From Patescibacteria group bacterium (GTDB taxonomy: Bacteria; Patescibacteriota; Minisyncoccia; JAHIHE01; JAGLIN01): 64,000 bases of DNA. The notes under the pieces were generated by a model that was given only the letters and a program-made list of their open reading frames with translations, made no database searches and was not told where the DNA came from. This document shows positions 15,021-58,118 of the stretch, in pieces (position 1 is the stretch's first letter; the number at the start of each line of letters is the position of its first letter). The position numbers and the translations under genes were made by a program. The DNA lies in the NCBI GenBank assembly GCA_019428855.1, contig JAHYJV010000002.1, positions 1,917-65,916 of the forward strand, read 5' to 3'.

Positions 15021-15049
15021 ATTATACTATTTTAAAAAAATATGGTCAA
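15021..15049 (-). promoter_or_regulatory. sigma70-type promoter for the 14993 operon (TTGACC-17-TATAAT)
   Basis: Reverse complement of ggtcaa (15044-15049) and attata (15021-15026), with an exact 17-nt spacer. It lies 28 nt upstream of the ATG at 14993. Confidence 0.65.
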
Positions 15050-15057
15050 TAAATCGA

Positions 15058-15108
15058 GGCTCTGCACTAATAACTGTGGTGGATAACTTAAGAAGTGGTA
15101 GAATAATA
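15058..15108 (-). repeat. promoter-proximal conserved module, copy A
   Basis: ggctctgcactaataactgtggtggataacttaagaagtggtagaataata. Starts exactly 8 nt from the -35 hexamer. Homology to copy C continues to about 15232. Confidence 0.9.
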
Positions 15109-15340
15109 TTTATAAATTAACAATTCACACTACTTCTCTGAAAAATGAGGTCAAAAAACTGTTTAATGATGTTCTTCCGAGTGAAGAAAGGAGCCGAGGA
15201 ATTCCTTTCAATCGGATATAAGTATCAAATCATTTAACTATGAAACCAAAATCCTCTTTTTGAGGCATGTGGTGAAATGACGCCATAGAAGGAATTAGTT
15301 TGTTGGTTAGATTAATATTTTCTTGACCTTTTTTATTTTT

Positions 15341-15660
15341 TTAAATTCTATAAAGATTATCTAATTTTTTATCACTTATTCTTTTTAGCTCCGCTAGGTT
15401 GAGTGATTGATGATTATTCTTAGTTTTTCTTTTTTTGATATTATATCTAAATCCATCAAGCGGCGGTAAAAAGTTTTTTCGATCGTATTTTCTCTTGATG
15501 CGTCCCCCGATTCTTTCTTTGGAAATTAATTTAATCACGGGTTGAAAAAAGTTCTTGTACAACCTTAATTCATTTTTGTTAAGATGTTTAAACAATCTAA
15601 TTCTTCTTGTGTGTTATATCGCAGATACCCAATCACTTGCCTAATATGCGTATAGTAATT
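15341..15660 (-). pseudogene. C-terminal remnant of an integrase-core (rve-type) IS transposase
   Basis: Track ORF 15341..15595 ('LYKNFFQPVIKLISKERIGGRIKRKYD') resembles the conserved C-terminal tail of rve-family transposases. Upstream sequence shows related fragments only in other frames with stops. No catalytic domain is present. Family assigned from memory. Confidence 0.4.
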
Positions 15661-15763
15661 TTTAACATTTCAGTTGATAAGAACGATTAAATTTCTGGAA
15701 GTGTCAAATGTAGAAAGTGCGGAATTTGACTGAAATATTACTTTATTCCCGCTTTCAAGTAGA

Positions 15764-15792
15764 ATTTCATTTCATTTCATTTCATTTCATTC
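15764..15792. repeat. (ATTTC)5 microsatellite
   Basis: Five perfect tandem ATTTC units at 15764-15788 plus a partial unit. Confidence 0.95.
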
Positions 15793-15994
15793 TATACTTC
15801 AAAACTATAAACCCTTGTCGTTGATTTCATATATTTTATTACACTTCTATGATTAACCATCTCACATTTTGATTCCTTTCAGGTATAATTCACCGCCCCC
15901 TGGGGCGTAATCTCTTTTTGTGATTTTCGACTTAAGTTATTATTTCGAAGATACCCCGTCTGCTTGCGGCGCAGTATAATTCATTTAAAACGCT

Positions 15995-16024
15995 AAAAAA
16001 AGACATATAAAATGTCTTTTTTTT
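15995..16024 (-). terminator. terminator of the 23S-5S transcription unit (bidirectional hairpin)
   Basis: aaagacat (15999-16006) pairs with atgtcttt (16012-16019), flanked by A and T runs. It lies about 20 nt downstream of the 5S 3' end on the minus strand. Confidence 0.7.
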
Positions 16025-16041
16025 AAATTTAGTATACAAAA

Positions 16042-16161
16042 TCTCCGGCGATGACCTACTCTCCCAACCCCGTACGGGGCAAGTACCATCAGCGCTAATG
16101 AGCTTAACTTCTGAGTTCGGAATGGTATCAGGTGTAACATCACCGCTAAAATCACCAGAGA
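16042..16161 (-). rRNA. rrf: 5S rRNA
   Basis: Reverse complement contains 'CCTGATACCATTCCGAACTCAGAAGTTAAGC' and 'GGGAGAGTAGGTCATCGCCGGAGA'. The terminal helix pairs UCUCUGGUGAU with AUCGCCGGAGA. Confidence 0.9.
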
Positions 16162-16317
16162 ATTTGTATACTAAATTATAATAGTGTATATAAAATTTTC
16201 AATATGTCAAATATAAAATTTTTTACATTCAATTGAATTATATAAATAGTTTTACAAACATTAAATGCCAGTTAATCCTTTTATTGCATTTTAATTTAAA
16301 AATGCAATTACATTAAA

Positions 16318-19375
<3,058 letters not shown>

Positions 19376-19683
19376 TAATGTAAGATTAACTAGCAATTAA
19401 AATTTGCAATTTAATATTTTATAATATTTTTTACCTATTTATATATATTCAATTGTCAATGATCATTCAAATCTTATATCTTCCGTTCATCTTCTAAATA
19501 TTAGAAAATGAATTAAAACTATAATTTTAAAAAATAAAACCGCCTTGTTCAGAGGCGATTTTAATCTTGTGATAATCACAAAATTAACCGCCATTTAATC
19601 ACTTAAATTCAATTCCATTTTTTTCATAACTTTATATTATGAATTAATGATTTTGCAAAATTAAAACTAAACATTACTTACAT

Positions 19684-19711
19684 AGAATAGCACAACTAAT
19701 AATACTGTCAA
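19684..19711 (-). promoter_or_regulatory. candidate promoter of the 23S-5S unit (TTGACA-16-TATTCT)
   Basis: Reverse complement of tgtcaa (19706-19711) and agaata (19684-19689). Same architecture and the same GTGCTATT -10 context as the 16S P2 promoter. Confidence 0.5.
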
Positions 19712-19782
19712 GTCTTAATTAATAATGCTTAAAACATAGAAAAAAAATTATTTTTTCAAGGAAGATTATACCTATTTATTGC

Positions 19783-19821
19783 TAAAATAAAAGAAGATAG
19801 ATAAGATTGATCTATCTTCTT
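19783..19821 (-). terminator. intrinsic terminator after the 227-aa membrane-protein gene
   Basis: Perfect 12-bp stem aagaagatagat (19791-19802) / atctatcttctt (19810-19821), followed on the minus strand by TTATTTTA. Confidence 0.7.
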
Positions 19822-19857
19822 TTTAGTGCTGTTAGACAAGTATTGAACAACAAGTTT

Positions 19858-20541
19858 CTATTTTAACTTATCTTTCAATTCATCCAGTAGTTCTTTCGCA
19901 TGGTATTGTCCACCCAATCCAAATGCAAGTCCTCCTGCAATGGCAAGCATTAAAGATAAACCACCTGCAAAAATCTTAATAATTTCCATACCAATTTGAA
20001 TTTGCTCCAGTACAACTAAGAATGTAAATATAATAATCGTCCACTTAAATAAAAATGCAACCAAATGATACATTCGAATTCCACTAGCTTTTGCCAGACC
20101 GTCTGTTGATTCGTACACAAGTTGAGAAATAATAACACCAATTGTCAAGCTAATAATCGCTAGAAATAAACTAGGTAGATAACTTAATATTTGTGCTAGA
20201 AATTCCGATACTTGTGGGATATCCATTATATCTACTACAAACTTTAAAGTAAATATCAGAATAAACCATTTAACCAACCAGCCTACGAGTTTCGAAATCG
20301 AAAAATTTATATTAATTCTTTTAAAACATTTTTTTATCCCAGCTTTTTCCAGCGATTTATCAATACTCATTTTTTCAAAAAGAATTTTTGTTAATTTTTC
20401 AAGTTCAACTGCAAACATCAAACCAATGAAGAAAACAAAGACTGCCGAAAAGATAGAACCCTCTATAAGAAATGCTTGATAAAAATTATAGATCGAACTT
20501 GGAATCTCGTAATAAACATCTGTAAATAAATTATATTGCAT
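19858..20541 (-). CDS. multi-pass membrane protein with repeated TM-helix motifs (MscS-associated 'conserved TM helix'-like)
   Basis: 227 aa, at least 4 TM segments with a repeated pattern, and a C-terminal 'GLGGQYHAKELLDELK'. The functional call is tentative. Confidence 0.6.
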   Translation of the reverse strand: MQYNLFTDVYYEIPSSIYNFYQAFLIEGSIFSAVFVFFIGLMFAVELEKLTKILFEKMSIDKSLEKAGIKKCFKRININFSISKLVGWLVKWFILIFTLKFVVDIMDIPQVSEFLAQILSYLPSLFLAIISLTIGVIISQLVYESTDGLAKASGIRMYHLVAFLFKWTIIIFTFLVVLEQIQIGMEIIKIFAGGLSLMLAIAGGLAFGLGGQYHAKELLDELKDKLK

Positions 20542-20785
20542 TTATAACACCCCCTTTCTTTTTATTTTTTTAATTAAATGTTATTAATTTTTTAAGAAAT
20601 TTATGAAAAAATATTATCTAAAATTGTTTTTATGTCTATGATAATATTATAACACATATTAATTATACTGCAATTTTATTTCGCAAGTTCTATATTGATT
20701 TTAAAATTATATTTTTTAGAAATAAAATCTTAGAAAGTTATCTCTGAGATTTTATTTGTGAACATTAAATTTTGGTGGTGTTTGT

Positions 20786-21191
20786 TTGAAAAAGTCAGAA
20801 CTCATTTTGAACAAAATACAGATTATGCTTGTTCAGAATAGAAAACCCCGCAAAAAGCGAGGGGCAAAAAATTTTCAATATTTAGGTTTTGCTACTTGTG
20901 GGATTTGTGGCTATGCCATAACCGCCGAAAGACATATTAAAAAAAGTGGTTTGAAATTTGTTTATTATTATTGCAACCACAAAAGCAAAACTGTTGCTCG
21001 CACTGAAAATTGTTTTTTTGCGGGAAGAAGCTTTAACCGAACAAGTAAAAAACCTTTGTCAAAAAGTTTCTTTGCCTGATGAGTGGTGGAAAAGAAAACA
21101 ATTGAGGAAAAATTATCGGATTTTGAACGAAAAGGTAATCATTGGCTCGAACTCATGCGAAACTGAATTATTGAAGCCAACCAAGCCGTAA
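20786..21191 (+). pseudogene. frameshifted fragment of a large serine recombinase (zinc-ribbon region only)
   Basis: Frame A: 'FATCGICGYAITAERHIKKSGLKFVYYYCNHKSK', the recombinase Zn-ribbon pattern CGxCG...YYxC. It continues only in another frame as 'FLREEALTEQVKNLCQKVSLPDEW'. The N-terminal resolvase catalytic domain is absent. Confidence 0.6.
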
Positions 21192-21199
21192 ATCTCTAT

Positions 21200-21239
21200 A
21201 AACAAGAAAATCCCTCAAGGATGAGAGATTTTCTTGTTT
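21200..21239 (-). terminator. hairpin downstream of tRNA-Ala (candidate terminator)
   Basis: aaacaagaaaatc (21200-21212) pairs with gattttcttgttt (21227-21239). The T-rich segment is inside the stem, so strength is uncertain. Confidence 0.35.
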
Positions 21240-21367
21240 CCATCGGCTCGAACCGTAGAATTTTGGCGGGAATTATTTCGGCGGAATTCAAAACCCCCTG
21301 GAATTTCTTGGAGAAAACCAATGCCGAGGGGCGAAGCCCCGAGGCAACTTCTTTAACAAATTCGGAC

Positions 21368-21444
21368 TGGTGGACCCAACAGGATTCGAACCTGCGACCC
21401 CCTGCTTGCAAAGCAGGTGCTCTAGCCAACTGAGCTATGGGCCC
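21368..21444 (-). tRNA. tRNA-Ala (UGC), CCA encoded
   Basis: Reverse complement GGGCCCATAGCTCAGTTGGCTAGAGCACCTGCTTTGCAAGCAGGGGGTCGCAGGTTCGAATCCTGTTGGGTCCACCA. Cloverleaf fits, with anticodon loop TTTGCAA. Confidence 0.95.
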
Positions 21445-21555
21445 ATAATTTTTTTCGTTTTATATAATAATATTTGAACATCTTATACTGCTTGATTATT
21501 ATATCAAAATCAACTGTATTCGACTATATCTTAAATATATAAAAGCTAAAACGAG

Positions 21556-21629
21556 TGGGCGTACCTGGACTCGAACCAGGGACCTTTACATTATCAGTGT
21601 AACGCTCTAACCAGCTGAGCTATACGCCC
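21556..21629 (-). tRNA. tRNA-Ile (GAU)
   Basis: Reverse complement GGGCGTATAGCTCAGCTGGTTAGAGCGTTACACTGATAATGTAAAGGTCCCTGGTTCGAGTCCAGGTACGCCCA. Anticodon loop CTGATAA. No encoded CCA. Confidence 0.95.
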
Positions 21630-21954
21630 GGATGCTAATTTCTAATTTTAAATCAATTTCTAATAACTGAATTTTTTATATTAAAAATTAAGACATTAGT
21701 TAAAAATAATGAAATTCACTTCTCTATTATAACAAAAATCGCATCTTATGCAATACTATTGTATAGATGCGATTTTTGTTTTCACTTTTATTACAAACTT
21801 TGTGCAATTGTCCTGAAGGCAATTTTGTTCCTATCTACTCGAAAATAGATAAGCCTGTATTACCAACAGCCAAACATGTAGATGATATTAAAATCATTCT
21901 ACAGACGATCTCGGTGAGTGTATTTCTTTAGACTAAAGAAATAACTTTCTCCCT

Positions 21955-23421: not shown

Positions 23422-23636
23422 AATGATAATCTATTCATTGAAGAATAATTTATCTCAAAATATAATAAAGCATAATCAATGGACATAAAAATGTCAATGT
23501 AATTATGCATAAAAGTTTTATCTTGGAATTGTCTATAACCGGATAAGTTTATAGACTCGCAGGACAACTGCACAAAGTTTATATAATTGTGTGTGATTTA
23601 TATTTAATTGTTAATGAACAATTTAATTACTAAGTC

Positions 23637-23664
23637 ATAATAGCACAAACAAAACACGTGTCAA
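23637..23664 (-). promoter_or_regulatory. candidate 16S promoter P2 (TTGACA-16-TATTAT)
   Basis: Reverse complement of tgtcaa (23659-23664) and ataata (23637-23642). The -10 context GTGCTATTAT parallels the 23S promoter GTGCTATTCT. Confidence 0.5.
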
Positions 23665-23740: not shown

Positions 23741-23769
23741 ATACTATAGCAATAAATGATTTGTGTCAA
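23741..23769 (-). promoter_or_regulatory. candidate 16S promoter P1 (TTGACA-17-TAGTAT) with upstream conserved module
   Basis: Reverse complement of tgtcaa (23764-23769) and atacta (23741-23746), with an exact 17-nt spacer. Confidence 0.5.
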
Positions 23770-23777
23770 ATTAGGTG

Positions 23778-23829
23778 GGCTCTACACTAATAACTGCGGT
23801 GAAGAACTAAAAAAAATTATTGGATTATA
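23778..23829 (-). repeat. promoter-proximal conserved module, copy B (most diverged)
   Basis: ggctctacactaataactgcggtgaagaactaaaaaaaattattggattata. The first 24 nt are nearly identical to the other copies. Starts 8 nt from the -35 hexamer. Confidence 0.8.
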
Positions 23830-39790: not shown

Positions 39791-40141
39791 TTATTTTGTT
39801 TCCCCTGTGTTAGACTCTTTTACTTCATCGGTCTTTTTCTCAGACGAAGCTTCAGTTTTAACATCGCCTTCTTTTTTCTTTGAACTCCACGCTTTTATTT
39901 TATCTCCCTTGATTATGCCAGCATCCACCAAAAGATTATTCACCGTCGTGGAAGGTTGAGCTCCTTTGGAAATCCAATATTCAACCCTATCTTTTTTAAA
40001 TACTTTTTCCTTCGTGTGAGGATTATAATGACCCAAAATTTCAATAAACTTTCCAGTTGGAGATCTTCTAACATCAGCTAATGTTATTCTGAATTGAGCT
40101 GTGTTTTTCTTTCCTACTCTACTTAATCTAATTCTTAACAT
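39791..40141 (-). CDS. rpsP: 30S ribosomal protein S16 with Lys/Glu-rich C-terminal tail
   Basis: 'MLRIRLSRVGKKNTAQFRI...GHYNP'. Start placed at ATG 40141, the canonical S16 N-terminus. Confidence 0.93.
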   Translation of the reverse strand: MLRIRLSRVGKKNTAQFRITLADVRRSPTGKFIEILGHYNPHTKEKVFKKDRVEYWISKGAQPSTTVNNLLVDAGIIKGDKIKAWSSKKKEGDVKTEASSEKKTDEVKESNTGETK

Positions 40142-40178
40142 ATTGATCAATTTGATTAATTATTAAATCTACTTATTC

Positions 40179-40207
40179 ATATTAATCCATATAACAATAA
40201 ATGTCAA
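40179..40207 (-). promoter_or_regulatory. rpsP operon promoter (TTGACA-17-TAATAT)
   Basis: Reverse complement of tgtcaa (40202-40207) and atatta (40179-40184), with an exact 17-nt spacer. It lies 38 nt upstream of the rpsP ATG. Confidence 0.65.
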
Positions 40208-40215
40208 TAAATTGT

Positions 40216-40266
40216 GGCTCTACACTAATAACTGTGGTGGATAACCAAAGAAGTGATAGAATTATA
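40216..40266 (-). repeat. promoter-proximal conserved module, copy C
   Basis: ggctctacactaataactgtggtggataaccaaagaagtgatagaattata. 100% identical to copy D. Starts 8 nt from the -35 hexamer. The extended element, shared with copy A, runs to about 40395. Confidence 0.95.
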
Positions 40267-40338
40267 TGGAAGAATTAACAATTCACACCACTCCTATTAA
40301 AATGATATTAAAAAAAAACTGTTTTAAGCTATCATCCA

Positions 40339-40395
40339 AGCGACGAGAGGAGTCGAGAGATCCCTCTTAGTCGCGCTAAATATTATCAAATATTA
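40339..40395 (-). repeat. GC-rich hairpin module (second module of the intergenic element), copy C
   Basis: agcgacgagaggagtcgagag is identical to 44001-44021. Imperfect hairpin GCGAC..AGAGG/CCTCT..GTCGC. A degenerate relative lies at 15178-15210. Confidence 0.8.
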
Positions 40396-40469
40396 ATTCC
40401 AAATAAGAGTGATTTAACGAGGATGCCCCTCATCTTGGGAGACATCTGCTTGATTTCTTGCTTTTGCGT

Positions 40470-40500
40470 AACAAAGATGCCCTGCAAGATGCAGGGCATC
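40470..40500 (-). terminator. candidate smc terminator
   Basis: Perfect 10-bp stem gatgccctgc (40476-40485) / gcagggcatc (40491-40500), followed on the minus strand by TTTGTT. It lies about 145 nt downstream of the smc stop. Confidence 0.55.
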
Positions 40501-40643
40501 TTCAAATACAAAATGTAAGACACTCTCAAACATTTAGGCCAGTCGAGAACGATTCATCCACTTCACTATTATGCGGTCAGAATAAAAGATATACATTACT
40601 ACACTCAACCACCACACATTTTGACAAAGGGCCAAAATTCGTA

Positions 40644-42902
40644 TTACTTATTAATTTCATCTAGTTGCAAGGAAATAATTTTTGATACACCATCATTTTG
40701 CATTGTGACCCCATAGAGAACTCCTGCCTGCTTCATCATTTCACGATTATGGGTAATGATAATAAATTGAGTTTTTTGAGAAATTTCACCAATAATTTTA
40801 GACAGTTTAGATGAGTTTGCCTCGTCTAGAGCTGCATCAATTTCATCTAAGACTGAAAAAGGAGGTGGATTGTTAGATATTATGGCAAATAGTATAGCAA
40901 TAGATGTCAAAGCTCTCTCACCACCAGAAAGCATATTTAAGCTGCTAATCTTTTTTCCAGGTGGCTCGGCATTAATTTCAATTCCTGCAATCTTTTTCGC
41001 GAATTCTTTTGTGATACTATCTTCACTAGCTTCCTGATTTTCCTGCCTATCTTCATCTGCCTTGTCAGTATATTTGATAGACAATCCTGCCTTACCACCA
41101 GCAAAAATCATTTTGAAATATTTATTTAATTCCGTATTAATTCTTCTAAAAGATTCTTTAAAAATCTTTTCAATCTTCTTGTCAAGCTCAGTAATAACAT
41201 CTCTTAGCGAGCTTGATGCCTTGATCAAATCCTCATACTGCACATTTAAAAAATCGAATCTTTTTTGAGTTTCATCAAACTCTTCCACAATTAAAGGATC
41301 TATTCCTCCGATTTGCTCAAGCTGAAATTTTAATTTTCGGACTCTTGATCTCGACTCCTCCTGATTAAAATAATTATTTTCAGTTATAGTTTCAGTTTTA
41401 GCTTCCTGTAAACTATCCAAGAACTCACTTGAATTAAACTCTTCCCTTATCTCACTTATCAAATCCTCTTTTCGAACTTCAAACTTAGCAAGTTCAATAT
41501 TAATAGTATTCAAATTGTCTTTTAATCGGTTCAATTCTTCCTGTTTTGCTTGAAGCTTTCTTTCAAATTCAAAAAACAATCTTCTTCGATCTTGTTCTTC
41601 TTGATTTAGAAGAACAATTTTTCCATTAATTTCTTGGTATTTTTTCGATTTTTGTGAAAGTTGAATATTCAATTTCTCTTTTTCAGAAATATATTTCTTT
41701 AACTCTTCATCATTAAATACTTGTTTTTTTTCATTCAAATTAATTTTTCCTTCACTAACTTCTGAAAACAAATGCTCAACATCAATTTTAATTAATTTCC
41801 CACTTTCTTTTAGGCGCTCAATATTGTTCAAATCATTTAAACTATTGATATTAGCCAATAATTTTTTATATCTATTCAAAATGTTAGTCAGCTTTCCTTT
41901 GACATAACCAAGGTTAATTGGAACAAATTCGGGGTTTTCTGTCGTGTCTTTTTTTTCATTTTCAATCTGAATTCGACCTTCAAGAACAGAAAGATTTTTT
42001 TGTAATTCATTAATAACAACTTGAATATCGGAAGTTTCCTTTTGATACCCGCTTAAAGTAGGTTGATATTCTTCATTTTTATTATCATTTTTTGAAAGGT
42101 TGTCTTTGATAATTAAAATATCATTTGCAGCATTATCCACTAATTTATCAATATTTATTTTATCAACGGTATTTTTAATATTTTTTTTTAATAAATTCCG
42201 CCACATATTAGAGTACAATAGTTCTTGCTCTGTCTTCAAGCTAGCTTCAATCAACCCTCTTTTTTGAGCTCTGCTTGCTAAACGCTTCAGAGAACTCAAA
42301 CGAGGTTCGATTTCATTTAAGAGGTCTGTTATTCTTTGGAGATTTCTTTTTGTAGCCTCAAGTTTTTTTATTGTTTGTTGTTTTTTAATCTGAAACATTC
42401 GAACTCCAGTCGCTTCTTCAAAAATTACCATTCTCTCAGCTGGAGTGGCTGACAAGATTGAATCGGCCATACCTTGAGTTATAACACAATAACCCCTCTG
42501 ACTCACTCCTGCACTTGTTAATAAATCAACTACATCAGATAATCTCACTTTCGATTTATTAATCAAATATTCACTCTCTCCACTTCTAAAAAACTTCCTC
42601 GTCACGATAACCTCTTCGTAATCTATGGGGATTTTTTTATCTTTATTATCAAGATAAAGAGAAACAACTGCAGCACTCATCTTTGCTTTCTTGTCTGTTC
42701 CCGTGAAAATTATATCTTCACTTTTCTTTCCTCGCAAACTTTTCATGCTTTGCTCACCAAGAACCCATCTGACAGCATCAGCTACATTTGATTTTCCAGA
42801 ACCATTTGGTCCGACAATTGCCGTCACACCTTGAGGAAAATCCAAAATAGTCTTATTCGCAAATGACTTGAACCCAGTTGTCTCAATTTTTCTTAGATAC
42901 AT
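40644..42902 (-). CDS. smc: SMC-family chromosome segregation ATPase, unusually short (752 aa)
   Basis: N-terminal head 'FKSFANKT...GPNGSGKSNVADAVRWVLGEQS'. C-terminal head 'LSGGERALTSIA', 'LDEIDAALD' and 'IIITHN'. Long heptad-like middle region; no hinge-type glycine-rich motif seen by eye. Confidence 0.85.
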   Translation of the reverse strand: MYLRKIETTGFKSFANKTILDFPQGVTAIVGPNGSGKSNVADAVRWVLGEQSMKSLRGKKSEDIIFTGTDKKAKMSAAVVSLYLDNKDKKIPIDYEEVIVTRKFFRSGESEYLINKSKVRLSDVVDLLTSAGVSQRGYCVITQGMADSILSATPAERMVIFEEATGVRMFQIKKQQTIKKLEATKRNLQRITDLLNEIEPRLSSLKRLASRAQKRGLIEASLKTEQELLYSNMWRNLLKKNIKNTVDKINIDKLVDNAANDILIIKDNLSKNDNKNEEYQPTLSGYQKETSDIQVVINELQKNLSVLEGRIQIENEKKDTTENPEFVPINLGYVKGKLTNILNRYKKLLANINSLNDLNNIERLKESGKLIKIDVEHLFSEVSEGKINLNEKKQVFNDEELKKYISEKEKLNIQLSQKSKKYQEINGKIVLLNQEEQDRRRLFFEFERKLQAKQEELNRLKDNLNTINIELAKFEVRKEDLISEIREEFNSSEFLDSLQEAKTETITENNYFNQEESRSRVRKLKFQLEQIGGIDPLIVEEFDETQKRFDFLNVQYEDLIKASSSLRDVITELDKKIEKIFKESFRRINTELNKYFKMIFAGGKAGLSIKYTDKADEDRQENQEASEDSITKEFAKKIAGIEINAEPPGKKISSLNMLSGGERALTSIAILFAIISNNPPPFSVLDEIDAALDEANSSKLSKIIGEISQKTQFIIITHNREMMKQAGVLYGVTMQNDGVSKIISLQLDEINK

Positions 42903-43726: not shown

Positions 43727-43874
43727 TTTTTTTTACTTATTATTTAATTATTATACTACTTACCTATAAGCTATATTATATCATCTAAATTGTTTTTCTC
43801 ATAATCAAAAACTCCATTCGCCTCTTTATTCAATTTATTACTCTAATTATTACTTTCGATTATTTCATAATCTC

Positions 43875-43903
43875 TTTATATCACAATTTTTCTTATTTTA
43901 CAA
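43875..43903 (-). promoter_or_regulatory. ndk promoter (TTGTAA-17-TATAAA)
   Basis: Reverse complement of ttacaa (43898-43903) and tttata (43875-43880), with an exact 17-nt spacer. Confidence 0.5.
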
Positions 43904-43911
43904 TAAATTGT

Positions 43912-43962
43912 GGCTCTACACTAATAACTGTGGTGGATAACCAAAGAAGTGATAGAATTATA
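43912..43962 (-). repeat. promoter-proximal conserved module, copy D
   Basis: Identical to copy C over 62 nt (43900-43962 region, caataaattgtggctc...gaattata). Starts 8 nt from the -35 hexamer. Confidence 0.95.
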
Positions 43963-44000
43963 CTTAAAATAATATCAAAATGTTTATATTTGTCATTTCG

Positions 44001-44057
44001 AGCGACGAGAGGAGTCGAGAGCCACCCTCTTAATCACTCTAAATCTTATCCAATATC
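44001..44057 (-). repeat. GC-rich hairpin module, copy D
   Basis: agcgacgagaggagtcgagag..cctctta..ctaaat.ttatc.aatat, collinear with 40339-40395. Confidence 0.8.
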
Positions 44058-44117
44058 ATTTCCCATAAAGCGATTTGTCGACGACTCTACTACCCTGATT
44101 GGAATAAAAGCTTAAAA

Positions 44118-51477: not shown

Positions 51478-52722
51478 TTATGGTAGAAAAGTTTTGAATA
51501 CACTTCTTATTTTCTGTAAAATATCCTTGATTTGTGGTAATTTTATACCGCCACTATCTTGAGAAAAAAATCCATTTTCATCAGTTTCCCACAACAAAAG
51601 TCCAATCACGGTCGCAAACGATGGATCATCCACTTTGTCAATTATACCATTTAGTTCAGATGGAATTCCAATTTGTGCTGGTAGACGCAATTTTTCTTTA
51701 GCCATGGAAACCATACCCTGCATTTTTGCACCACCGCCAGTTAGAACTACACCAGCTGGAAGCATTCCACTTTTGTCGATTTTCTTAAGCTCTTTATTAA
51801 CCAGAAAAAATATTTCCTCAACCCTAGCTTCAATAATTTCTGCTAAATATTTTCTAGTAAAAATTCCTTCTTCACTTGAATCAATCTTTGAAATGTCAAT
51901 CTTATCTTTTTTGGCAATTTCCTTGGAACTTACAGTTCCATATTCGAGTTTAATTTTTTCAGCCACATCAATTGATGTTCGCAGTCCAATAGCAATATCA
52001 TTGGTAATATGACCAGATCCAATAGGTATAACTGTTGAGTGTAATATATTCCCATCTTCGTATACAGATATTCCCGTAGTTCCTTTACCAATATCAATTA
52101 TCACAACACCAAGTTCTTTTTGTCTTTTTGTCAGAACTGCCTTTGCTGCTGCAAGTGGTGCAAAAATTAAATCATCGATATCAATCCCCGCTCTTTGTAC
52201 ACACTTTGAAAGATTCTTAATGAAAGGAGCCATGCCTTCAATTACAAGAGAACTAACCTCAAGCCTTACCCCATTCATACCGATAGGATCCTTAATTTGA
52301 TCCTGACCATCTATTGTATAATTACAGGGTATTACTGCGATAATCTCTTTATTATTAGGCATTGAAATCGCTTGTGATGCGTTTATAACCCTAGTAACAT
52401 CCTCTTCGCTAATTTCGCCATCAGCCCTTGAAACAGCAACAACGCCTTTTGATGGCTGGGTGCATAAGTGACTTCCATTAATACTTATAAAAGCATGCTC
52501 AACTGGAACACCGGAGGTTTGTTCCGCGAGCTCCTTTGATTTATTTATGGCCGAAATTGTTTCATCAATATCAACTATAACTCCATTGTTAAGTCCAAAA
52601 GATGGAGCAATCCCAACACCTAAAATTAACGGTTTTGATTCATTCCCTTGTTTTTGAGAAATTACAGTTCTCACAAAACTGCTTCCAATGTCAATACCAA
52701 CTAATATATTATTTCGTGACAT
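51478..52722 (-). CDS. ftsA: cell division protein FtsA
   Basis: 414 aa actin-fold protein. 'GIDIGSS', 'DIGKGTT' and 'VLTGGGA'. Upstream of ftsZ. Confidence 0.93.
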   Translation of the reverse strand: MSRNNILVGIDIGSSFVRTVISQKQGNESKPLILGVGIAPSFGLNNGVIVDIDETISAINKSKELAEQTSGVPVEHAFISINGSHLCTQPSKGVVAVSRADGEISEEDVTRVINASQAISMPNNKEIIAVIPCNYTIDGQDQIKDPIGMNGVRLEVSSLVIEGMAPFIKNLSKCVQRAGIDIDDLIFAPLAAAKAVLTKRQKELGVVIIDIGKGTTGISVYEDGNILHSTVIPIGSGHITNDIAIGLRTSIDVAEKIKLEYGTVSSKEIAKKDKIDISKIDSSEEGIFTRKYLAEIIEARVEEIFFLVNKELKKIDKSGMLPAGVVLTGGGAKMQGMVSMAKEKLRLPAQIGIPSELNGIIDKVDDPSFATVIGLLLWETDENGFFSQDSGGIKLPQIKDILQKIRSVFKTFLP

Positions 52723-52834
52723 AAGTTTTTATTAAATCAAAATTATTATTTGTTTTTTATTTTCAATTATAGAAGAAAATCAATATACATTATTATAACA
52801 CTATTTTTAAAATATAAGAAATGTATTAAATTTC

Positions 52835-53206
52835 CTACATGAAATATATTAATATATGTGGCCATAGAATTAGGAAACCAACTAAAAAAGCCCCAAATGA
52901 AGCTATTAATACAGCTGCAGCCATCATATCCTTGATTGTTTTGGCATACGGATGAACTCTTGGTTTGAGTATATCCACAATACGCTCAAAAATTGAATTT
53001 ATAATCTCTAGAACAAGCACCAAGGTAACCATCATTAACAAGGCGACCGTTTCCCAAACTTTAAGTCTGAATATTAATATAAGTATAATTATACAGAAAG
53101 TTGAAAATATTTGAATTCGAAAATTTTGCTCTCTGGAAACAAATTTTAATCCTCTAATTGCATGAGAAATACTTTTTGTCAATTTTTTAAAACTAAATGA
53201 CATCAT
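52835..53206 (-). CDS. dgkA: diacylglycerol/undecaprenol kinase family protein
   Basis: 123 aa, 3 TM helices. 'ISHAIRGL', 'EQNFRIQ', 'LEIINSIFE' and 'KDMMAAAVL'. Confidence 0.85.
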   Translation of the reverse strand: MMSFSFKKLTKSISHAIRGLKFVSREQNFRIQIFSTFCIIILILIFRLKVWETVALLMMVTLVLVLEIINSIFERIVDILKPRVHPYAKTIKDMMAAAVLIASFGAFLVGFLILWPHILIYFM

Positions 53207-53216
53207 TATATATGAT

Positions 53217-53663
53217 TTATAATTTCTTTAAAACATCAATTTCGATTTCTTTCATCACTGAATTCTCATAGCTCTCCAAATGATCAAATCCAGCTAGATG
53301 TAATATACCATGAATCAACAAAATTGAAAACTCTTTTTTAGTTGAATGCTTTTTTTCTCTAGCTTGTTTTTGGATTTTTGGATAGCAAATAAAAATTTCT
53401 CCAAAAGAAATGACATTATTAGAAGGAAACACGAATTTCACACTGTTATCAGTGTCTTCATTCCCGAATGACAAGACATCTGTTACTTTGTCTATCTTGC
53501 GGTATTTTTTATTTAAAGTTCGTATCCTTTTTTCTCCCGAAATTACTAAACTAATTTCAACAGTTTTTTTTAGTTTAAGTGTTTTTAAAGTTTCTTGAGC
53601 AACTTTATCTAAAAATTTTTTTTCAATTCTATTTTTTGTAAAGTTTTTAATTTGTAATGACAT
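53217..53663 (-). CDS. ybeY: rRNA maturation endoribonuclease YbeY
   Basis: 148 aa. 'TDVLSF' and 'HGILHLAGFDH' zinc motif. Confidence 0.92.
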   Translation of the reverse strand: MSLQIKNFTKNRIEKKFLDKVAQETLKTLKLKKTVEISLVISGEKRIRTLNKKYRKIDKVTDVLSFGNEDTDNSVKFVFPSNNVISFGEIFICYPKIQKQAREKKHSTKKEFSILLIHGILHLAGFDHLESYENSVMKEIEIDVLKKL

Positions 53664-54186
53664 ATTAAATATTTTAAATAAAACAAATTCAACCGCACGA
53701 CAAAACCATTTAACCTGTCACGAACAATAATATTTCAATAAGTTTTTCAATATTTAAAGACTCTCGTAAAAAATTACTCTTAGAAAAATAGCAACCACAA
53801 TAGTACCACCTTCGACCATTGTTATTCCTCTAGAGATTGGAACATTCTTTAAACACATTAATAAATATAATCTATACTTCTCATCAACAATTCCGCAAAA
53901 ATGAAAGAGAAATTTTATTTCTTAATGTTATGATATTTTGACCAATTAATTAAAAAAAAGTAGAAATCATAGCTACTAAAAAAGGCTGTTCCAGAAATAA
54001 ATATCAGAGCAATAGTCAAACTTAATCTCTCATTAGAAATCTAAATAAAATAACTACAAAAAACAAAACTGAATAGAGCTAAAAAAGAAATACAATATGG
54101 ACGCTTATAAATTAAATAAATTTAGCATAAGAATGTATTGCACAATACACGCTAATTAATATAATAATAAAGAGAACAAAATAAAT

Positions 54187-54633
54187 CTATTTATTCAACA
54201 ATTCTTTCACAAGTTTACTAACTAAATTACCATCAGCCATTCCTTTCGTTTCTCTCATCGCTAACCCAATAATTTTTCCAAAATCTGAAGCGTTAGCATC
54301 TCCAAAATTTTCTATTATTTCTTTGATTATATTTCTAGTCTCGTCTTCAGTCATCTGTTTCGGCATATATTTCTGCAAAATAGCAAGTTCGTTATTCTCC
54401 TTATCAGCTAAATCTTTTCTACCACCCTTTAAATATTGATCGATTGAATCTTTTCTTCTTTTGACATTTTTTTTAATAATCAAAATGATTTCTTCATCGG
54501 TAGATTTCTTCCTCTGCTCAATTTCAGCATTTTTTATATCAGAAACAAGCATTCTCAAAACATCGCGGACATCCTTGTTTCCTTTTTTAATCGCAATTTT
54601 TAAATCGTTTTTTATAGTTATTTCTGTATTCAT
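54187..54633 (-). CDS. GatB/YqeY-domain protein
   Basis: 148 aa. 'LKIAIKKGNKDVRDVLRML...KNAEIE', 'AILQKYMP' and 'GKIIGLAMRETKGMADG'. Confidence 0.85.
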   Translation of the reverse strand: MNTEITIKNDLKIAIKKGNKDVRDVLRMLVSDIKNAEIEQRKKSTDEEIILIIKKNVKRRKDSIDQYLKGGRKDLADKENNELAILQKYMPKQMTEDETRNIIKEIIENFGDANASDFGKIIGLAMRETKGMADGNLVSKLVKELLNK

Positions 54634-54803
54634 ATTTTAATTAAATAATCAGGCAATTTTATCTATAAAAGAAAGCTCTGATAGACTTATAAAATTACGC
54701 TTTTTATAATGTATTCTAAGAGTTAAATGCCAGATTTCTTGCATAATTTATACACAATATAGCAAAGCAAGAAAATTAAGAAAACTCTGTTTAGAAGAGA
54801 CTC

Positions 54804-55034
54804 TTATGATCGATAATCATCTTCAAGCAGTCCGAGTTTTCGAAGTTTTTCTCTTTCTTTGACCATCTCTTTTCTTCGCAAAGCACTTTTTCTTCTCTCA
54901 GTTTTGCTCTGATTTTTTTCTTGAAACCTTGAATTTCTCGCTTGAAAAAGCACGCCACTTTGTTGTACTTTTTTTGAAAAACGTCTTAAAAAACTGCCTA
55001 TACTTTCATTGTCTTTTTTTTTAATTTCAATCAT
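54804..55034 (-). CDS. rpsU: 30S ribosomal protein S21
   Basis: 76 aa, basic. 'ESIGSFLRRFSKKVQQSGVL' and 'RRKSALRRK'. Confidence 0.9.
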   Translation of the reverse strand: MIEIKKKDNESIGSFLRRFSKKVQQSGVLFQARNSRFQEKNQSKTERRKSALRRKEMVKEREKLRKLGLLEDDYRS

Positions 55035-55146
55035 TATTTTTCACTCTCGCTTTCTATTTAATATATTAATTATAAAACTAACTGGACCCAGTATAACATA
55101 TAACTACATTTTTGCAAGACCCTGTACCAAAGATTGCTTTTATTTT

Positions 55147-55476
55147 TTATTTAGGTGCTTTACCACCCAATAAATGTAAATGGATATGTTGTACTTCCTG
55201 TCCACCTTCTTTTCCAACTCGAAAAAGAAGCTTATATCCTTTTTTTGCTATGTCATTTCTTTCTGCTATTATCTTGGCAGTAAAAATCAATTTACCCATC
55301 AGCAGAGTATCATCTTCAGAAATATCTGTAACTGATTTAATATGAGTTTTAGGAATAATCAATATGTGAATTAGTGCAATTGGTCTAATATCAGAAAATG
55401 CAATTATTTTATCATCCTCGTAAAAAATTTCAGCAGGAATATTTTTTTTTACAATTTGACAAAATATACATTCCAT
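55147..55476 (-). CDS. HIT-family (histidine triad) nucleotide hydrolase
   Basis: 109 aa. 'CIFCQIV' and the triad 'QHIHLHLLGG'. Confidence 0.92.
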   Translation of the reverse strand: MECIFCQIVKKNIPAEIFYEDDKIIAFSDIRPIALIHILIIPKTHIKSVTDISEDDTLLMGKLIFTAKIIAERNDIAKKGYKLLFRVGKEGGQEVQHIHLHLLGGKAPK

Positions 55477-55486
55477 AATACTGAAA

Positions 55487-56812
55487 TTAATTTCTTAATC
55501 TTTTTTGTACCTCTTCAACAATATCTTGTAGCGTAACCACTTCCTGCATTCCACTCTCCATATCTCGGATAATCACAGTATCATCAAGTGCCTCTTTTTG
55601 CCCGACAATTAAGGCCAGCTTAGAATTAGTTTTATTTGCTAATCGAAGTTGAGATTTTATACTTCCTCTGCCAAGTGACTCACCAACTGCAATATCACAG
55701 TCAATCAACTTATCAAATATTCTAAGAATTTTTTTCCGAGCCAGATTTCCAAGTTGCACTAAAAATACATCTTTTTTAATTCTTTTATTGATCTTAATTC
55801 CTTTTCTTTGAATACTTTCCACAACTCTTTCTATGCCAAAGGAAAATCCGATTGCTGGTGCATCTTCGCCACCCATTAATTTAATCATATTATCGTATCT
55901 TCCTCCACCTCCAAGAGAATTTTGGTTTCCTTCACTATCACATTCCCAAATTTCAAAAACAGTCTGCGTATAATAATCAAGACCACGAACAAGGTTTGAA
56001 TTCAATACATATGGTATTTCTAATTCATCTAAAAATTCAAGAACATTCTTAAAGTGATCGTGGCAAGGCTCACAGAGATGATCAATAATCTGTGGTGCTG
56101 AAAATGAAACCTGCGTACATTTTTCCTCTTTGCAATCCAAAAGTCGAAGTGGATTTTCGTCTAGTCTTCTTTTGCAATCATGACATAATTTATTGATTTT
56201 CATTTCATAATAATCTACTAGCATTTTTTTATATGCTAATCGACATTCACTACATCCAATACTGTTCAGTTGGATTATCGTATCATTGATTTCAGATTTT
56301 TGTAATATTTTCCATGCTAAATATATTACTTGTGCATCAATTGCTGGACAATTGTCTCCTATAATTTCAAAACCAAACTGATAGAATTGTCTATATCGTC
56401 CTGCCTGAGGCTTCTCATATCTAAACATTGGTCCTTCGTAAAACAGTTTTACGGGCTGAGGCCACTTACTCATTCCGTTTTCAACATAAGCTCTAACAAC
56501 ACCTGCCGTTCCCTCTGGTCTCATTGAAACATCGTCACCTCCCTTAGTCTCAAAAGAAAACATTTCTTTTTCAACTATATCTGTAATATTTCCGACTCCC
56601 CGTTGAAATAATTCTGTTTTCTCTAAAATTGGCGTAGAAATTCGACCAAATCCCAATTCAGTACATAATTTTCGAGCATGATCTAGCACATAATCCCAGA
56701 CTAATTGGTCTGTCGGCAAAATGTCATTCATGCCTTTAATTGCTTGAATCTGCTTTAATCTTTTTTTAGGCTTTCTTACTTCGTTCTTAGTTTCTTTTTT
56801 AACCCTTGTCAT
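55487..56812 (-). CDS. hisS: histidyl-tRNA synthetase
   Basis: 441 aa. 'GMNDILP', 'LRPEGTAGVVR', 'GPMFRYEKPQAGRYRQFYQ', 'GGGRYDN' and 'GFSFGIER'. Basic N-terminal extension of about 25 aa. Confidence 0.95.
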   Translation of the reverse strand: MTRVKKETKNEVRKPKKRLKQIQAIKGMNDILPTDQLVWDYVLDHARKLCTELGFGRISTPILEKTELFQRGVGNITDIVEKEMFSFETKGGDDVSMRPEGTAGVVRAYVENGMSKWPQPVKLFYEGPMFRYEKPQAGRYRQFYQFGFEIIGDNCPAIDAQVIYLAWKILQKSEINDTIIQLNSIGCSECRLAYKKMLVDYYEMKINKLCHDCKRRLDENPLRLLDCKEEKCTQVSFSAPQIIDHLCEPCHDHFKNVLEFLDELEIPYVLNSNLVRGLDYYTQTVFEIWECDSEGNQNSLGGGGRYDNMIKLMGGEDAPAIGFSFGIERVVESIQRKGIKINKRIKKDVFLVQLGNLARKKILRIFDKLIDCDIAVGESLGRGSIKSQLRLANKTNSKLALIVGQKEALDDTVIIRDMESGMQEVVTLQDIVEEVQKRLRN

Positions 56813-56843
56813 ATGTACAAAAAATTACTATTTAATATCCTCT

Positions 56844-57377
56844 TTAGATAAATATATTTTGTGTAAATTGATCTATTTGTGCTATTTTTTCATTATCATT
56901 CTCAATATCTCGAGACCCCTTTGCGATTAAGCTCATATCTCCAGAAAGATTTAGACCAAATTCACCCCCAATATGTTCTAGATATCCTGTCACACTATAG
57001 TTTACCGATTTTAATTCCTCTCCAATGGCTACTGTATACAATTTTTTACCGCTTAATTTCTTATCACTAAAAAGCGGGAGAAGTCTGTCAATAAAATTTT
57101 TCATCAACCCTGTCACATTATCAAAATAAGTCGGACTTCCGAAAATTATCGTATCGCAATCATCTAATTTTGAATATATCATTTGCATATCATCTCTAAC
57201 ATTACAACTTTTGGTTAACTCACAAGTTAAACAACCATTACAATATTCGATTCTTTTGTCTTTCAAAAGTATCAAATCCGTAGCTAAACCGTGTTTTTCA
57301 GCCTCAGTTAAGATTCTTTTTAGCACGAATTCTGTATTCCCAGTTCTTGCACTTCCACAAATTGCAATTATTTTCAT
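56844..57377 (-). CDS. NADPH-dependent FMN reductase / iron-sulfur flavoprotein-like
   Basis: 177 aa. 'KIIAICGSARTGNT', Cys cluster 'CNGCLTCELTKSC' and 'IIFGSPTYF'. Confidence 0.8.
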   Translation of the reverse strand: MKIIAICGSARTGNTEFVLKRILTEAEKHGLATDLILLKDKRIEYCNGCLTCELTKSCNVRDDMQMIYSKLDDCDTIIFGSPTYFDNVTGLMKNFIDRLLPLFSDKKLSGKKLYTVAIGEELKSVNYSVTGYLEHIGGEFGLNLSGDMSLIAKGSRDIENDNEKIAQIDQFTQNIFI

Positions 57378-57391
57378 ATTAACCTTCTTAA

Positions 57392-57988
57392 TTAATAATC
57401 TATACCTGCAAAAACTGAAAAATTATCAAAAGGCCAAGCCCGTATCCAAGCACGGCCAACTATATAATGTTTCTCTAGCACCCCCCAAATTCTTGAATCA
57501 GCACTGGCTGTTCGATTGTCTCCTAGAACATAATATTCATCATTTTTAAGCTCTCTGGTATATGTACCTGTTGTAATCGTTGTTTCAGGGATATATAGTT
57601 GTTCAGATATTTCAAATCCCTCTGGATTATTAACATTATAAATCTTGATTTTGTTTTCAAAAATTTCAACTTTTTCACCCGGTAAACCAATTATTCTTTT
57701 TATATAATATTCTTTAAAATTATTTGGATAGTGAAAAACAATTACATCCCCGCGAGAAGGCTCACCAAGACGATAGCTAATTTCATCCACTATTAAATAA
57801 TCTCCATCACGAAAATTTGGTTCCATGCTTTTCCCACTTACAAAAAAAGGCTGCATTATATATGTTCTAATTCCAATAATAACTATCAAACTTAAAATGA
57901 CAATTTTAATACTTTCAATTGAAAAATCTTTTAGCTCAAAAAAGAATGACCTCTGCTTATTAATCTTTTGAGTATTATTACTGTTCAT
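57392..57988 (-). CDS. lepB: signal peptidase I
   Basis: 198 aa. TM helix, 'SGKSMEPNF' (catalytic Ser), 'GDVIVF', 'IKRIIGLPGE' (catalytic Lys) and 'VLGDNRTASADSR'. Confidence 0.93.
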   Translation of the reverse strand: MNSNNTQKINKQRSFFFELKDFSIESIKIVILSLIVIIGIRTYIMQPFFVSGKSMEPNFRDGDYLIVDEISYRLGEPSRGDVIVFHYPNNFKEYYIKRIIGLPGEKVEIFENKIKIYNVNNPEGFEISEQLYIPETTITTGTYTRELKNDEYYVLGDNRTASADSRIWGVLEKHYIVGRAWIRAWPFDNFSVFAGIDY

Positions 57989-58030
57989 TTTTTATTATAT
58001 TTACAAATAAATTTAACTAAGCATATTTTC

Positions 58031-58059
58031 AGAATACAACTTTTTTAACAACTAGTCAA
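58031..58059 (-). promoter_or_regulatory. lepB operon promoter (TTGACT-17-TATTCT)
   Basis: Reverse complement of agtcaa (58054-58059) and agaata (58031-58036), with an exact 17-nt spacer. It lies 43 nt upstream of the lepB ATG. Confidence 0.55.
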
Positions 58060-58067
58060 ACAAGACA

Positions 58068-58118
58068 GGCTCTACACTAATTAGTGTGGTGGATAACTAA
58101 TAAAGTGGTAAAATTATA
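58068..58118 (-). repeat. promoter-proximal conserved module, copy E
   Basis: ggctctacactaattagtgtggtggataactaataaagtggtaaaattata. Contains the perfect 14-bp palindrome ACACTAATTAGTGT. Starts 8 nt from the -35 hexamer. Confidence 0.9.

Follow-up and report, generated by a model that had tools for sequence, protein, structure and literature searches.

Transposons of the ISL3 family, including ISL3/IS1476 of Enterococcus, IS1167 of S. pneumoniae, IS31831 and ISArsp7, are about 1.3 kb long and encode a transposase with a DDE_Tnp_ISL3 domain and an N-terminal Zn-ribbon. Their inverted repeats start with GGCTCT(T) and contain an inner GTGGTG motif, and insertion generates an 8-bp target duplication. 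Published elements have inverted repeats beginning GGCTCTTCG and 8-bp direct repeats (PMC11448079; PMC6305408). A short, non-autonomous MITE of Microcystis aeruginosa, which has inverted repeats of the GGCTCTTCG type and direct repeats of 8 nt, was attributed to ISL3 transposases acting in trans, with no promoter register reported (PMC11448079). Here we analysed a 64,000-nucleotide window from a Patescibacteria group bacterium, in which a repeated module stands at a fixed distance from several promoters. We assign a probability of about 0.85 to the reading that this module represents ~50 nt at the outer edge of the transposase-proximal inverted repeat (IRL; the other end is the IRR) of a divergent ISL3-family clade, whose 8-bp target-site duplication abuts the host -35 hexamer.

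Re-examination of the window confirmed the five module copies (A to E) reported by the first-pass annotation, all on the minus strand, and in all five the GAGCC end is followed by exactly 8 nt, a -35-like hexamer, 17 nt and a -10-like hexamer. The core CAGTTATTAGTGYAGAGCC occurs five times in the window at up to three mismatches, against 0.02 expected, and at least five occurrences were obtained in 0 of 100 shuffles; a search with a profile of the module end detected no sixth copy in the window. The promoters of copies C and E were listed independently by a consensus promoter scan, which missed that of copy D because its -10 hexamer lacks the final T. The reported module length of ~51 nt did not stand, as the repeat is much longer, reaching ~173 nt in copies A and D and 418 nt in copy C.

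The window holds only non-autonomous derivatives, namely the two-ended miniature C and the IRL-only remnants A, B, D and E, and all the copies, 8-mers and promoters listed below lie on the minus strand. Copy A (15058-15230) is an IRL-containing stub without IRR, with an interior homologous to that of copy C; it is followed at 15021-15057 by the 8-mer tcgattta and a promoter (TTGACC, 17 nt, TATAAT) upstream of a 289-aa ORF (14124-14993) and rodA. Copy B (23778-23829; profile match 23778-23814) is the most diverged IRL stub, followed at 23741-23777 by cacctaat and the 16S rRNA promoter P1 (TTGACA, 17 nt, TAGTAT). At 418 bp, copy C (40216-40633) is a complete MITE-like miniature derived from ISL3 and lacks a transposase. 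It comprises an IRL (40216-40266), which is the module as first annotated, an internal hairpin GATGCCCTGCATCTTGCAGGGCATC near 40470-40500, and an IRR tip GGCCCTTTGTCAAAATGTGTGGTGG (40609-40633), an inverted module copy absent from the earlier annotation. The 8-bp target-site duplication reads acaattta on the IRL side (40208-40215) and, in decayed form, cgaatttt on the IRR side (40634-40641), the two agreeing at 5/8 positions, and the rpsP host promoter (TTGACA, 17 nt, TAATAT) lies at 40179-40207. Copy C is ~80% identical to loci L002 and L007 of MAG C14-28 over ~295-330 nt. Copy D (43912-44084), an IRL-containing stub that lacks the IRR and has lost part of its interior, adjoins the stop codon of a metallo-beta-lactamase gene. 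It is followed at 43875-43911 by acaattta and a weak promoter (TTGTAA, 17 nt, TATAAA), whose orthologue in a relative belongs to a 207-aa gene preceding ndk. Copy E (58068-58129) is an IRL stub, its centre altered to the 14-bp palindrome ACACTAATTAGTGT noted previously, and is followed at 58031-58067 by tgtcttgt and the lepB promoter (TTGACT, 17 nt, TATTCT).

The short copies (L001, L006, L007, L002 and window copy C) start with GGCTCTTTGTCAAAAYGTGTGGTGG and finish with ...CCACCACAGTTATTAGTGTAGAGCC, ends that form an imperfect inverted repeat of ~30 bp. Full-length relatives of 1277-1340 bp, found in metagenomes, have both ends as in the short copies and carry an ORF of ~395-409 aa, which starts 81-102 nt inside the IRL and matches Pfam DDE_Tnp_ISL3 (E 5e-57 and 3e-54) and Zn_ribbon_ISL3. 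Neither the window nor the nine loci of MAG C14-28 showed a transposase, so mobility in this genome is something we infer; element positions in the window and in MAG C14-28 are non-orthologous, as mobility would predict.

The invariant 8-nt spacer is an 8-bp target-site duplication left by integration. Perfect 8/8 duplications flank the element at six independent well-assembled sites (L140, L141, L142, L143/L148, L146 and L152-155), and in five older miniature copies the duplication positions agree in 27/40 cases (P = 3e-7). Insertion by this clade at a distance of precisely one 8-bp target duplication from the -35 hexamer, on its upstream side, would account for the fixed spacing between module and promoter. 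Many full-length copies in short-read metagenome contigs have no target duplication, which we attribute to chimeric assembly across a multi-copy repeat; identical left flanks are joined to different right flanks in L031/L077, L143/L144 and L146/L147.

A flank logo was built from 92 unique, independent IRL flanks. Past the 8-mer it revealed a sigma-70 promoter in fixed register and directed away from the element, with TTG in ~83-90% at exactly +9 to +11 and TAnnnT in ~76%. Positions 9-14 after the tip read T83 T82 G83 A63 C62 A51, followed by T45 and G44 at -15/-14 and, at a spacing of 17 nt, by a -10 of T70 A70 nnn T71, the -35 being more informative than the -10. The fixed phasing with a sigma-70-type promoter, first noticed in the window, extends to ~90 independent sites in other genomes. 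No such hexamer was found in the IRR flanks (0/29), and the orientation bias is ~68 to 1, the exception being the single reverse-orientation site L141, with TTGACA on the IRR side. The promoters face genes in 61/76 flanks, and maps of called genes show the gene on the IRL side running divergently to that of the transposase. From this register we infer that the clade integrates next to -35 hexamers in a set orientation.

The -35, 17-nt spacer and -10 beyond the 8-mer are the host's own promoter. The first-pass annotation had considered a mobile cassette carrying its own outward promoter ahead of operons; its mobile part stood and its promoter cargo did not. Besides mobility, that reading could draw on flank likeness past the tip, namely acaatttaTTG in copies C and D, ctttttgtTTGACA in L001, L004 and L005, and similar spacers in L001 and L003. 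The flanks shared by C and D and by L001, L004 and L005 are unpredicted by independent insertion; a preference for T-rich targets, or duplication of the locality, may lie behind them. Outward donation of a -35 is also known for ISL3 elements, but in E. faecium ISL3 the outward TTGACA sits in the 3' end, the IRR (PMC13216065), as in the present clade, in which a TTGACA lies 7 nt from the IRR tip (...TTTTGACAAAGAGCC) and is lacking from the IRL. Moreover, similarity ends exactly at GAGCC in most copy pairs, and the perfect duplications set the element boundary at the tip, leaving TTGACA outside the duplicated 8 bp. Among copies with identical 70-nt interiors, 8-mers and spacers are at chance identity (0.25-0.47). 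In four of six groups of these copies the -35 identity is 0.68-0.93; a fifth group scores 0.47, and the sixth, a subgroup with the variable segment ATAATAAATAG, is at chance (0.33) and counts against our preferred explanation. Finally, a relative has an empty site, with the same orthologous 16S P1 promoter and no IRL upstream, and promoter carriage is accordingly very improbable. The same empty site bears on the other role proposed earlier, an operator from which a transcription factor, either global and growth-related or DnaA-like, would act at ~-44 to -95. A fixed position ahead of five core operons, the 8/9 DnaA-box match TTATCCACC, confirmed in copies A, C, D and E, and strong conservation across genomes that share only 66-77% identity in their coding genes would all suit an operator. 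Yet the same sequence terminates transposase-bearing elements in many unrelated flanks, some GC-rich, its sites are non-orthologous between the window and MAG C14-28, and an inverted partner and 8-bp duplication exist. The repeats, 170-590 nt long and ~80-95% identical, also interrupt assemblies at contig ends, as operators would not. The supposed DnaA box lies within a GTGGTGG(A/T)TAA segment common to both inverted repeats, of which the GTGGTGG core occurs in IRL and IRR and the DnaA-like GGATAA extension in the IRL only; one published ISL3 inverted repeat contains a related GGTGGTGAAT (PMC6305408). The module thus proved to be part of a longer transposable element with termini and target duplications, and an operator origin is extremely unlikely. 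The stubs find no support as host operators; an effect on promoter strength may have been acquired.

Such an acquired role would have exapted stubs at -44 to -95 modulate the adjacent promoter, in an UP-element-like manner or via a transposase-derived protein, which would explain why IRL ends persist. The stub position is compatible with class I activation geometry, the IRL has outlasted the rest of the element in four of the five window copies, and the IRL is near consensus while the intergenic surroundings have diverged. However, one-sided decay is expected anyway if deletions are unable to cross the promoter, stub lengths range from ~50 to 173 nt, and in a relative the D site retains no more than a badly decayed tip and the B site has none of the element, so that we regard exaptation as unlikely. 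Random or merely AT-biased insertion, with purifying selection in a compact genome sparing only copies just upstream of promoters, is quite improbable. It would fit the high coding density, the intergenic bias of E. faecium ISL3, ascribed to AT tropism or selection (PMC13216065), and the preference of IS31831 for A/T-rich DNA (PMC1590026). Selection cannot set a single-nucleotide register, however, because insertions 7, 9 or 20-100 nt upstream of the -35 would be equally harmless; nor does this account sit with the orientation bias, or with identical-interior, presumably young copies that are already in register in most groups. A structured RNA (leader, small RNA or guide scaffold) has next to no probability. 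The sharp 3' boundary followed by variable sequence superficially resembles a scaffold and guide, but the variable sequence is the promoter logo. Rfam gave no window match at gathering score, an E-value search of 40100-40700 returned only chance-level matches (best E 0.08, 23 bits against a 50-bit cutoff), and module folding z-scores on either strand were -2.4 to +0.9.

Under targeted ISL3 integration, as suggested by the register, insertion would leave the duplicated 8 bp against TTGAC(A), with the IRL toward the hexamer and the transposase gene pointing away; an element so oriented would land between one gene's 3' end and the promoter of the following gene. The insertion machinery probably reads TTGAC itself, because the -35 outweighs the -10 in information and the IRR has its own TTGACA while the IRL does not; the transposase and RNA polymerase are candidate readers of the hexamer. 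In this pathway, a TTGACA-reading surface occupied at the IRR could stay free at the IRL to capture the target hexamer. Selection in very compact genomes would then keep mainly insertions at real promoters, and later deletions would erode the element from the IRR side into one-sided stubs, sparing the IRL because a deletion through it would destroy the promoter.

The ISL3 family is already known, and it is the promoter targeting that looks new; we found no report in the literature of -35-adjacent, oriented integration by such transposons. Published members are described as AT-preferring or without marked specificity (PMC1590026, PMC13216065), whereas the present clade keeps a single-base register and set orientation to the -35, and none of the ISL3 transposases in 72,556 plasmid records reaches 30% identity to its own. 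Compared with the Microcystis MITE, the window elements are mosaic (224-588 nt variants) and mostly cut down to one-ended stubs. UP elements, class I activator sites and DnaA boxes likewise lie at -44 and further upstream, but the module is a transposon end that is not A/T-tract-like, has a single imperfect box per copy and is missing from a relative's orthologous 16S promoter. In compact eukaryotes, retrotransposons such as Ty3 and Ty1 at Pol III genes, the Dictyostelium TRE elements and Tf1 at Pol II promoters insert a fixed short distance ahead of transcription units, a safe haven that spares coding DNA in a gene-dense genome, using integrase and reverse transcriptase enzymes tethered by transcription factors. 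The likeness is functional only, as the enzymes are unrelated and the present element is a bacterial DDE transposon. Tn7 at attTn7, and IS1397/ISKpn1 and IS110-type elements in REP sequences (PMC1525189, PMC11187229), also insert intergenically at a defined distance and orientation. Their targets are chosen by a dedicated selector protein, by a guide RNA or through a repeated palindrome, whereas the present clade would recognise a generic -35 hexamer, which would make hundreds of potential sites available in each genome.

All five minus-strand copies of the ~51-nt module (A, 15058-15108; B, 23778-23829; C, 40216-40266; D, 43912-43962; E, 58068-58118) have the layout ascribed to them in the first-pass annotation, with ...GTTATCCACCACAGTTATTAGTG(T/C)AGAGCC followed by exactly 8 nt, a TTGACA-like hexamer, 17 nt and a -10-like hexamer. 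The downstream genes had also been named correctly, namely 16S rRNA (B), ribosomal protein S16, recognised from its translation (C), Ndk (D), signal peptidase (E), and a 289-aa ORF followed by RodA (A). The 19-nt core occurs five times in the window at ≤3 mismatches, against 0.02 expected, and a profile search of the window found no sixth copy. Repeat finding and pairwise BLAST in this Patescibacteria genome (window GC ~32%) lengthened A and D to ~173 nt each and C to ~418 nt. The long copies start with GGCTCTTTGTCAAAAYGTGTGGTGG, an imperfect inverted copy of the module (reverse complement GGCTCTACACTAATAACTGTGGTGGATAAC), and a second end is present in the window only in copy C, at 40609-40633. 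The window contents are one miniature element (copy C, 40216-40633) and four one-sided stubs; since no transposase is present in the window, these copies are non-autonomous.

The core was scanned over one genome per species (185,579 species), giving nine matches, all in the MAG Patescibacteria C14-28 and four of them at contig ends. Coding genes of C14-28 are only 66-77% identical to those of the window, whereas the repeats are 80-96% identical and precede different genes. Scanning of metagenomes with a motif common to both ends, GGCTCT-N11-TGTGGTGG-N-TAAC, returned at least 120 loci, with the module-type end in ~110 of the 130 matches listed. Among these listed matches, contigs continuing inward of the module end contain an ORF of 395-409 aa starting 81-102 nt inside, and full-length elements close 1277-1340 bp later with GGCTCTTTGTCAAAACGTGTGGTGG-type ends. 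Pfam analysis of two full-length relatives with the same ends, rather than of the window copies, detected DDE_Tnp_ISL3 and Zn_ribbon_ISL3 domains (E = 5.4e-57 and 6e-10 for L025; 2.7e-54 and 1.8e-10 for L034). The transposase-proximal inverted repeat (IRL, GGCTCTAYAMTAA..GTGTGGTGGATAAC) and the opposite end (IRR, GGCTCTTTGTCAAAACGTGTGGTGG) have 17-24 of 30 positions in common, and have the size and start of ISL3 terminal repeats (~15-39 bp, starting GGCTCT(T)). Published ISL3 inverted repeats start GGCTCTTCG, are accompanied by 8-bp direct repeats and have MITE offspring (PMC11448079; PMC6305408). The ISL3 domains and matching ends of the full-length relatives therefore identify the module as the IRL, demonstrating that the repeat is the end of an ISL3-family insertion sequence. 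An IS200/IS605 guide-RNA scaffold, another arrangement with a sharp end and a variable flank, was ruled out by the transposase, which is of the DDE ISL3 type, and by the inverted repeats.

This clade of transposases branches deeply and is abundant: no plasmid-borne ISL3 transposase reaches 30% identity to it, and 267 related protein clusters were retrieved at E ≤ 1e-60, nearly all on ~1.3-kb contigs, the pattern that collapse of a multi-copy repeat would give. [quoted passage not shown] The IRR carries an outward TTGACA and the IRL an inward TATACT/TATAAT, a hint that the two could form the junction promoter of the circle.

The flanks show that the 8-nt spacer is a target-site duplication (TSD), of the 8-bp length typical of ISL3. 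In five two-ended miniature copies the flanking 8-mers agree at 27 of 40 positions (P = 3e-7), and a perfect 8/8 duplication was found at six independent sites, two of them on one 1.2-Mb contig, among better-assembled loci retrieved via the transposase. No TSD was found in full-length copies of the first metagenome set; there, one left flank was paired with different right flanks, and the missing duplications are thus attributed to chimeric assembly. Copy C is a MITE, being short (418 bp), multi-copy and without transposase, with both inverted repeats and a 5/8 duplication. Other two-ended copies of this type measure 231 bp (L001, L006), 455 bp (L007) and ~588 bp (L002). Copies A, B, D and E, in which the second end is absent, are remnants that do not count as MITEs in the narrow sense; their one-sided form would fit erosion proceeding from the IRR side. 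The flanks of C and D are identical over the 8-mer and TTG (acaatttaTTG; 40202-40215 and 43898-43911), and ctttttgtTTGACA is common to three C14-28 copies (L001, L004, L005). Such sharing is unexpected for independent insertions and may stem from a preference for T-rich targets, or from duplication together with a few flank bases.

Other small repeats accompany the elements. A ~90-nt module with two related hairpins, GATGCCCTGCATCTTGCAGGGCATC and GATGTCTCCCAAGATGAGGGGCATC (window 40440-40510; L001 ~1640-1750; L002; L007), is contained in the long miniature elements C, L002 and L007, and adjoins the short one in L001 from outside. The miniature elements are mosaic, which may be read as repeated insertion at one promoter; the first hairpin, GATGCCCTGCATCTTGCAGGGCATC, could serve as a terminator of the upstream gene. 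What appears to be a second small repeat family is the GC-rich motif TCGATAAGCTCA(GG/CC), with two inverted copies just upstream of stub E at 58185-58257 (contexts ...ACCCTTCGATAAGCTCAGGGTAAC... and ...CATGGTGAGCTTATCGAACCATTG...; two found, 0.04 expected) and a related sequence in opposite orientation inside the long miniature element of L002 (~7380-7490). Elsewhere in the window, two perfect hairpins, TATATCCTTTTTTCTCACGGCCGTGAGAAAAAAGGATATA, 85% identical and located at 2924-2970 and 3543-3589, flank a 176-aa ORF (3017-3547) and are probably bidirectional terminators.

Alignment of 92 unique IRL flanks among the matches listed revealed a variable stretch at positions 1-8 after the tip, followed at positions 9-14 by T83 T82 G83 A63 C62 A51. 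In these same flanks the following 17 nt are variable save for T45 and G44 at -15/-14, and then give T70 A70 nnn T71. The IRL flanks are thus a complete sigma-70 logo in a single register, directed away from the element, while 0 of 29 IRR flanks among the matches listed have such a hexamer. Copies grouped by an identical 70-nt interior resemble one another in the 8-mer and spacer no more than expected by chance (identity 0.25-0.47), so the promoter is flank and not cargo; for the -35, identity within the six groups is 0.68-0.93 (four groups), 0.47 (one group) and 0.33 (one group). These promoters point toward genes, with a longer forward frame in 61 of 76 flanks among the matches listed, and called-gene maps place the IRL-side gene divergent from the transposase gene. 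In C14-28 the neighbouring genes differ from those of the window. A Pacebacteria MAG (GCA_030638075.1), located by way of its 92%-identical Ndk, shares the 16S P1 promoter, TTGACAcaaatcatttatt..taTAGTAT, with the window and has no IRL at the position of copy B. This empty site clinches the promoter as separate from the element. The flank promoter of site D has its orthologue in the promoter of a 207-aa gene in the Pacebacteria relative, which has a decayed tip-like TTATTTATAGCC alone, in the same register. These comparisons demonstrate insertion at native promoters, in a single-base register and with an orientation bias.

The 16S promoters are in tandem, P1 being TTGACA-17-TAGTAT (23741-23769) and P2 TTGACA-16-TATTAT (23635-23663), and both are conserved in the Pacebacteria relative (L138 ~14230-14360) with nearly identical spacers. 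In the same rRNA operon, ~2 kb separate tRNA-Ala and 23S rRNA (19377-21367) and contain, at 19858-20541, a 227-aa ORF that has a mechanosensitive-channel TM-helix domain; the 23S match exceeds the model length by ~140 nt. One metagenomic full-length copy, L141 (ERZ21869533 contig_5, 968054-972241), with a perfect TSD, AATTGAGA, has a TTGACA past the duplication on the IRR side. Its orientation is the reverse of the usual one, and the direction of the neighbouring gene does not suit use of that TTGACA.

The first-pass annotation had proposed that the module may be the operator of a global, growth-related regulator, possibly DnaA-like. A transcription-factor site or regulon is at odds with repeat units that reach hundreds of nucleotides and with sites that are non-orthologous between genomes, and an operator conserved at orthologous promoters with the absence of the module from the orthologous 16S P1 promoter. 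DnaA boxes (consensus TTATCCACA) do not form a cluster, as there is a single 8/9 match per copy and none in B; in all family members the DnaA-like motif corresponds to the GTGGTGGATAA part of the inverted repeat, and the putative box belongs to the GTGGTGG(A/T)TAA segment of the repeats. Of the promoter-carrying mobile cassette also proposed, the longer transposable element was borne out and the promoter of its own was not, the promoter being flank and present at the empty 16S P1 site.

A structured RNA was sought with an Rfam gathering scan of the window and an E-value scan of the copy C region, and none was found; folding of the module on both strands gave nothing beyond shuffles. A conserved TATAAT within the module, considered as the promoter of a conserved 5' leader, was dropped once the module was recognised as an insertion sequence end. 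Read from the opposite strand, these bases give TG-n-TAGAAT, which could plausibly be a transposase promoter. This extended -10 is found on the plus strand of copies A, C, D and E (e.g. GTGATAGAATT at 40250-40262 in C) and is probably the former transposase promoter; in the stubs it would be predicted to fire antisense toward the upstream gene. A host regulatory role of the stubs is possible, though nothing points to one.

Compared with a genome of 73-81% nucleotide identity, synteny is broken or sequence deleted at three of the window's five sites. Both B and C are synteny breakpoints, the order in GCA_030638075.1 being SMC, a 298-aa gene, 16S. The window is without ~3 kb of this relative's sequence next to stub D (window 43762-43836 and 43912-44117 against L138 6388-9970, with breakpoints at the stub). 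The loss comprises a sigma-ECF gene, two hypothetical genes, a Y1-transposase-like gene and most of the 207-aa gene, which is cut to a 25-aa remnant. It is therefore probable that the elements rearrange these tiny genomes at the borders of operons. Because every copy occupies the 5' edge of a transcription unit, always in one relative orientation, recombination between copies could reshuffle whole operons unbroken.

We infer that the insertion machinery selects N8-TTGAC, since selection by itself cannot produce a single fixed register. The -35 carries 1.2-1.7 bits and the -10 0.5-0.8 bits, the reverse of ordinary promoter logos, in which the -35 carries less information than the -10, and this argues for the same target, as does the reversed copy L141 beside a TTGACA that is not obviously a promoter. 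The outward TTGACA lies 7 nt from the IRR tip, and the IRL has none; in E. faecium the outward -35 of an ISL3 IRR makes hybrid promoters (PMC13216065). We speculate that this asymmetry may free one TTGACA-reading surface for target capture, thus setting orientation. A permissive Pfam scan detected no sigma-70 region-4-like domain in the transposase, and targeting guided by RNA polymerase is possible. The boldest reading, to which we assign a probability of roughly 0.6, is that an ISL3 clade so far seen in Patescibacteria/candidate phyla radiation genomes and metagenomes homes to sigma-70 promoters in one orientation, with the TSD abutting the -35, and that TTGACA is read either directly, by a transposase surface that also binds the IRR TTGACA, or via promoter-bound RNA polymerase/sigma.

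The ISL3 family and its MITEs are already known, and described members insert unspecifically or with AT preference (PMC13216065, PMC1590026). No report of promoter-register, oriented ISL3 insertion was found in the full-text literature searched, whose incomplete coverage makes this absence of evidence only. A generic promoter element as docking site, with single-base register and fixed orientation, would be an unusual target selection for a DDE transposase. The module calls for no new global regulator, and for similar 'conserved upstream modules' of reduced genomes a transposon end should be the first possibility to test. The insertions could mark real promoters in bacteria that cannot be cultured, and the flank logo (TTGACA, 17 nt with TG, TAnnnT) gives a picture of promoter architecture in these lineages that needs no experiment. 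If the boldest reading is true, the clade would parallel, in bacteria, the 'safe-haven' retrotransposons that target promoters in compact eukaryotic genomes.
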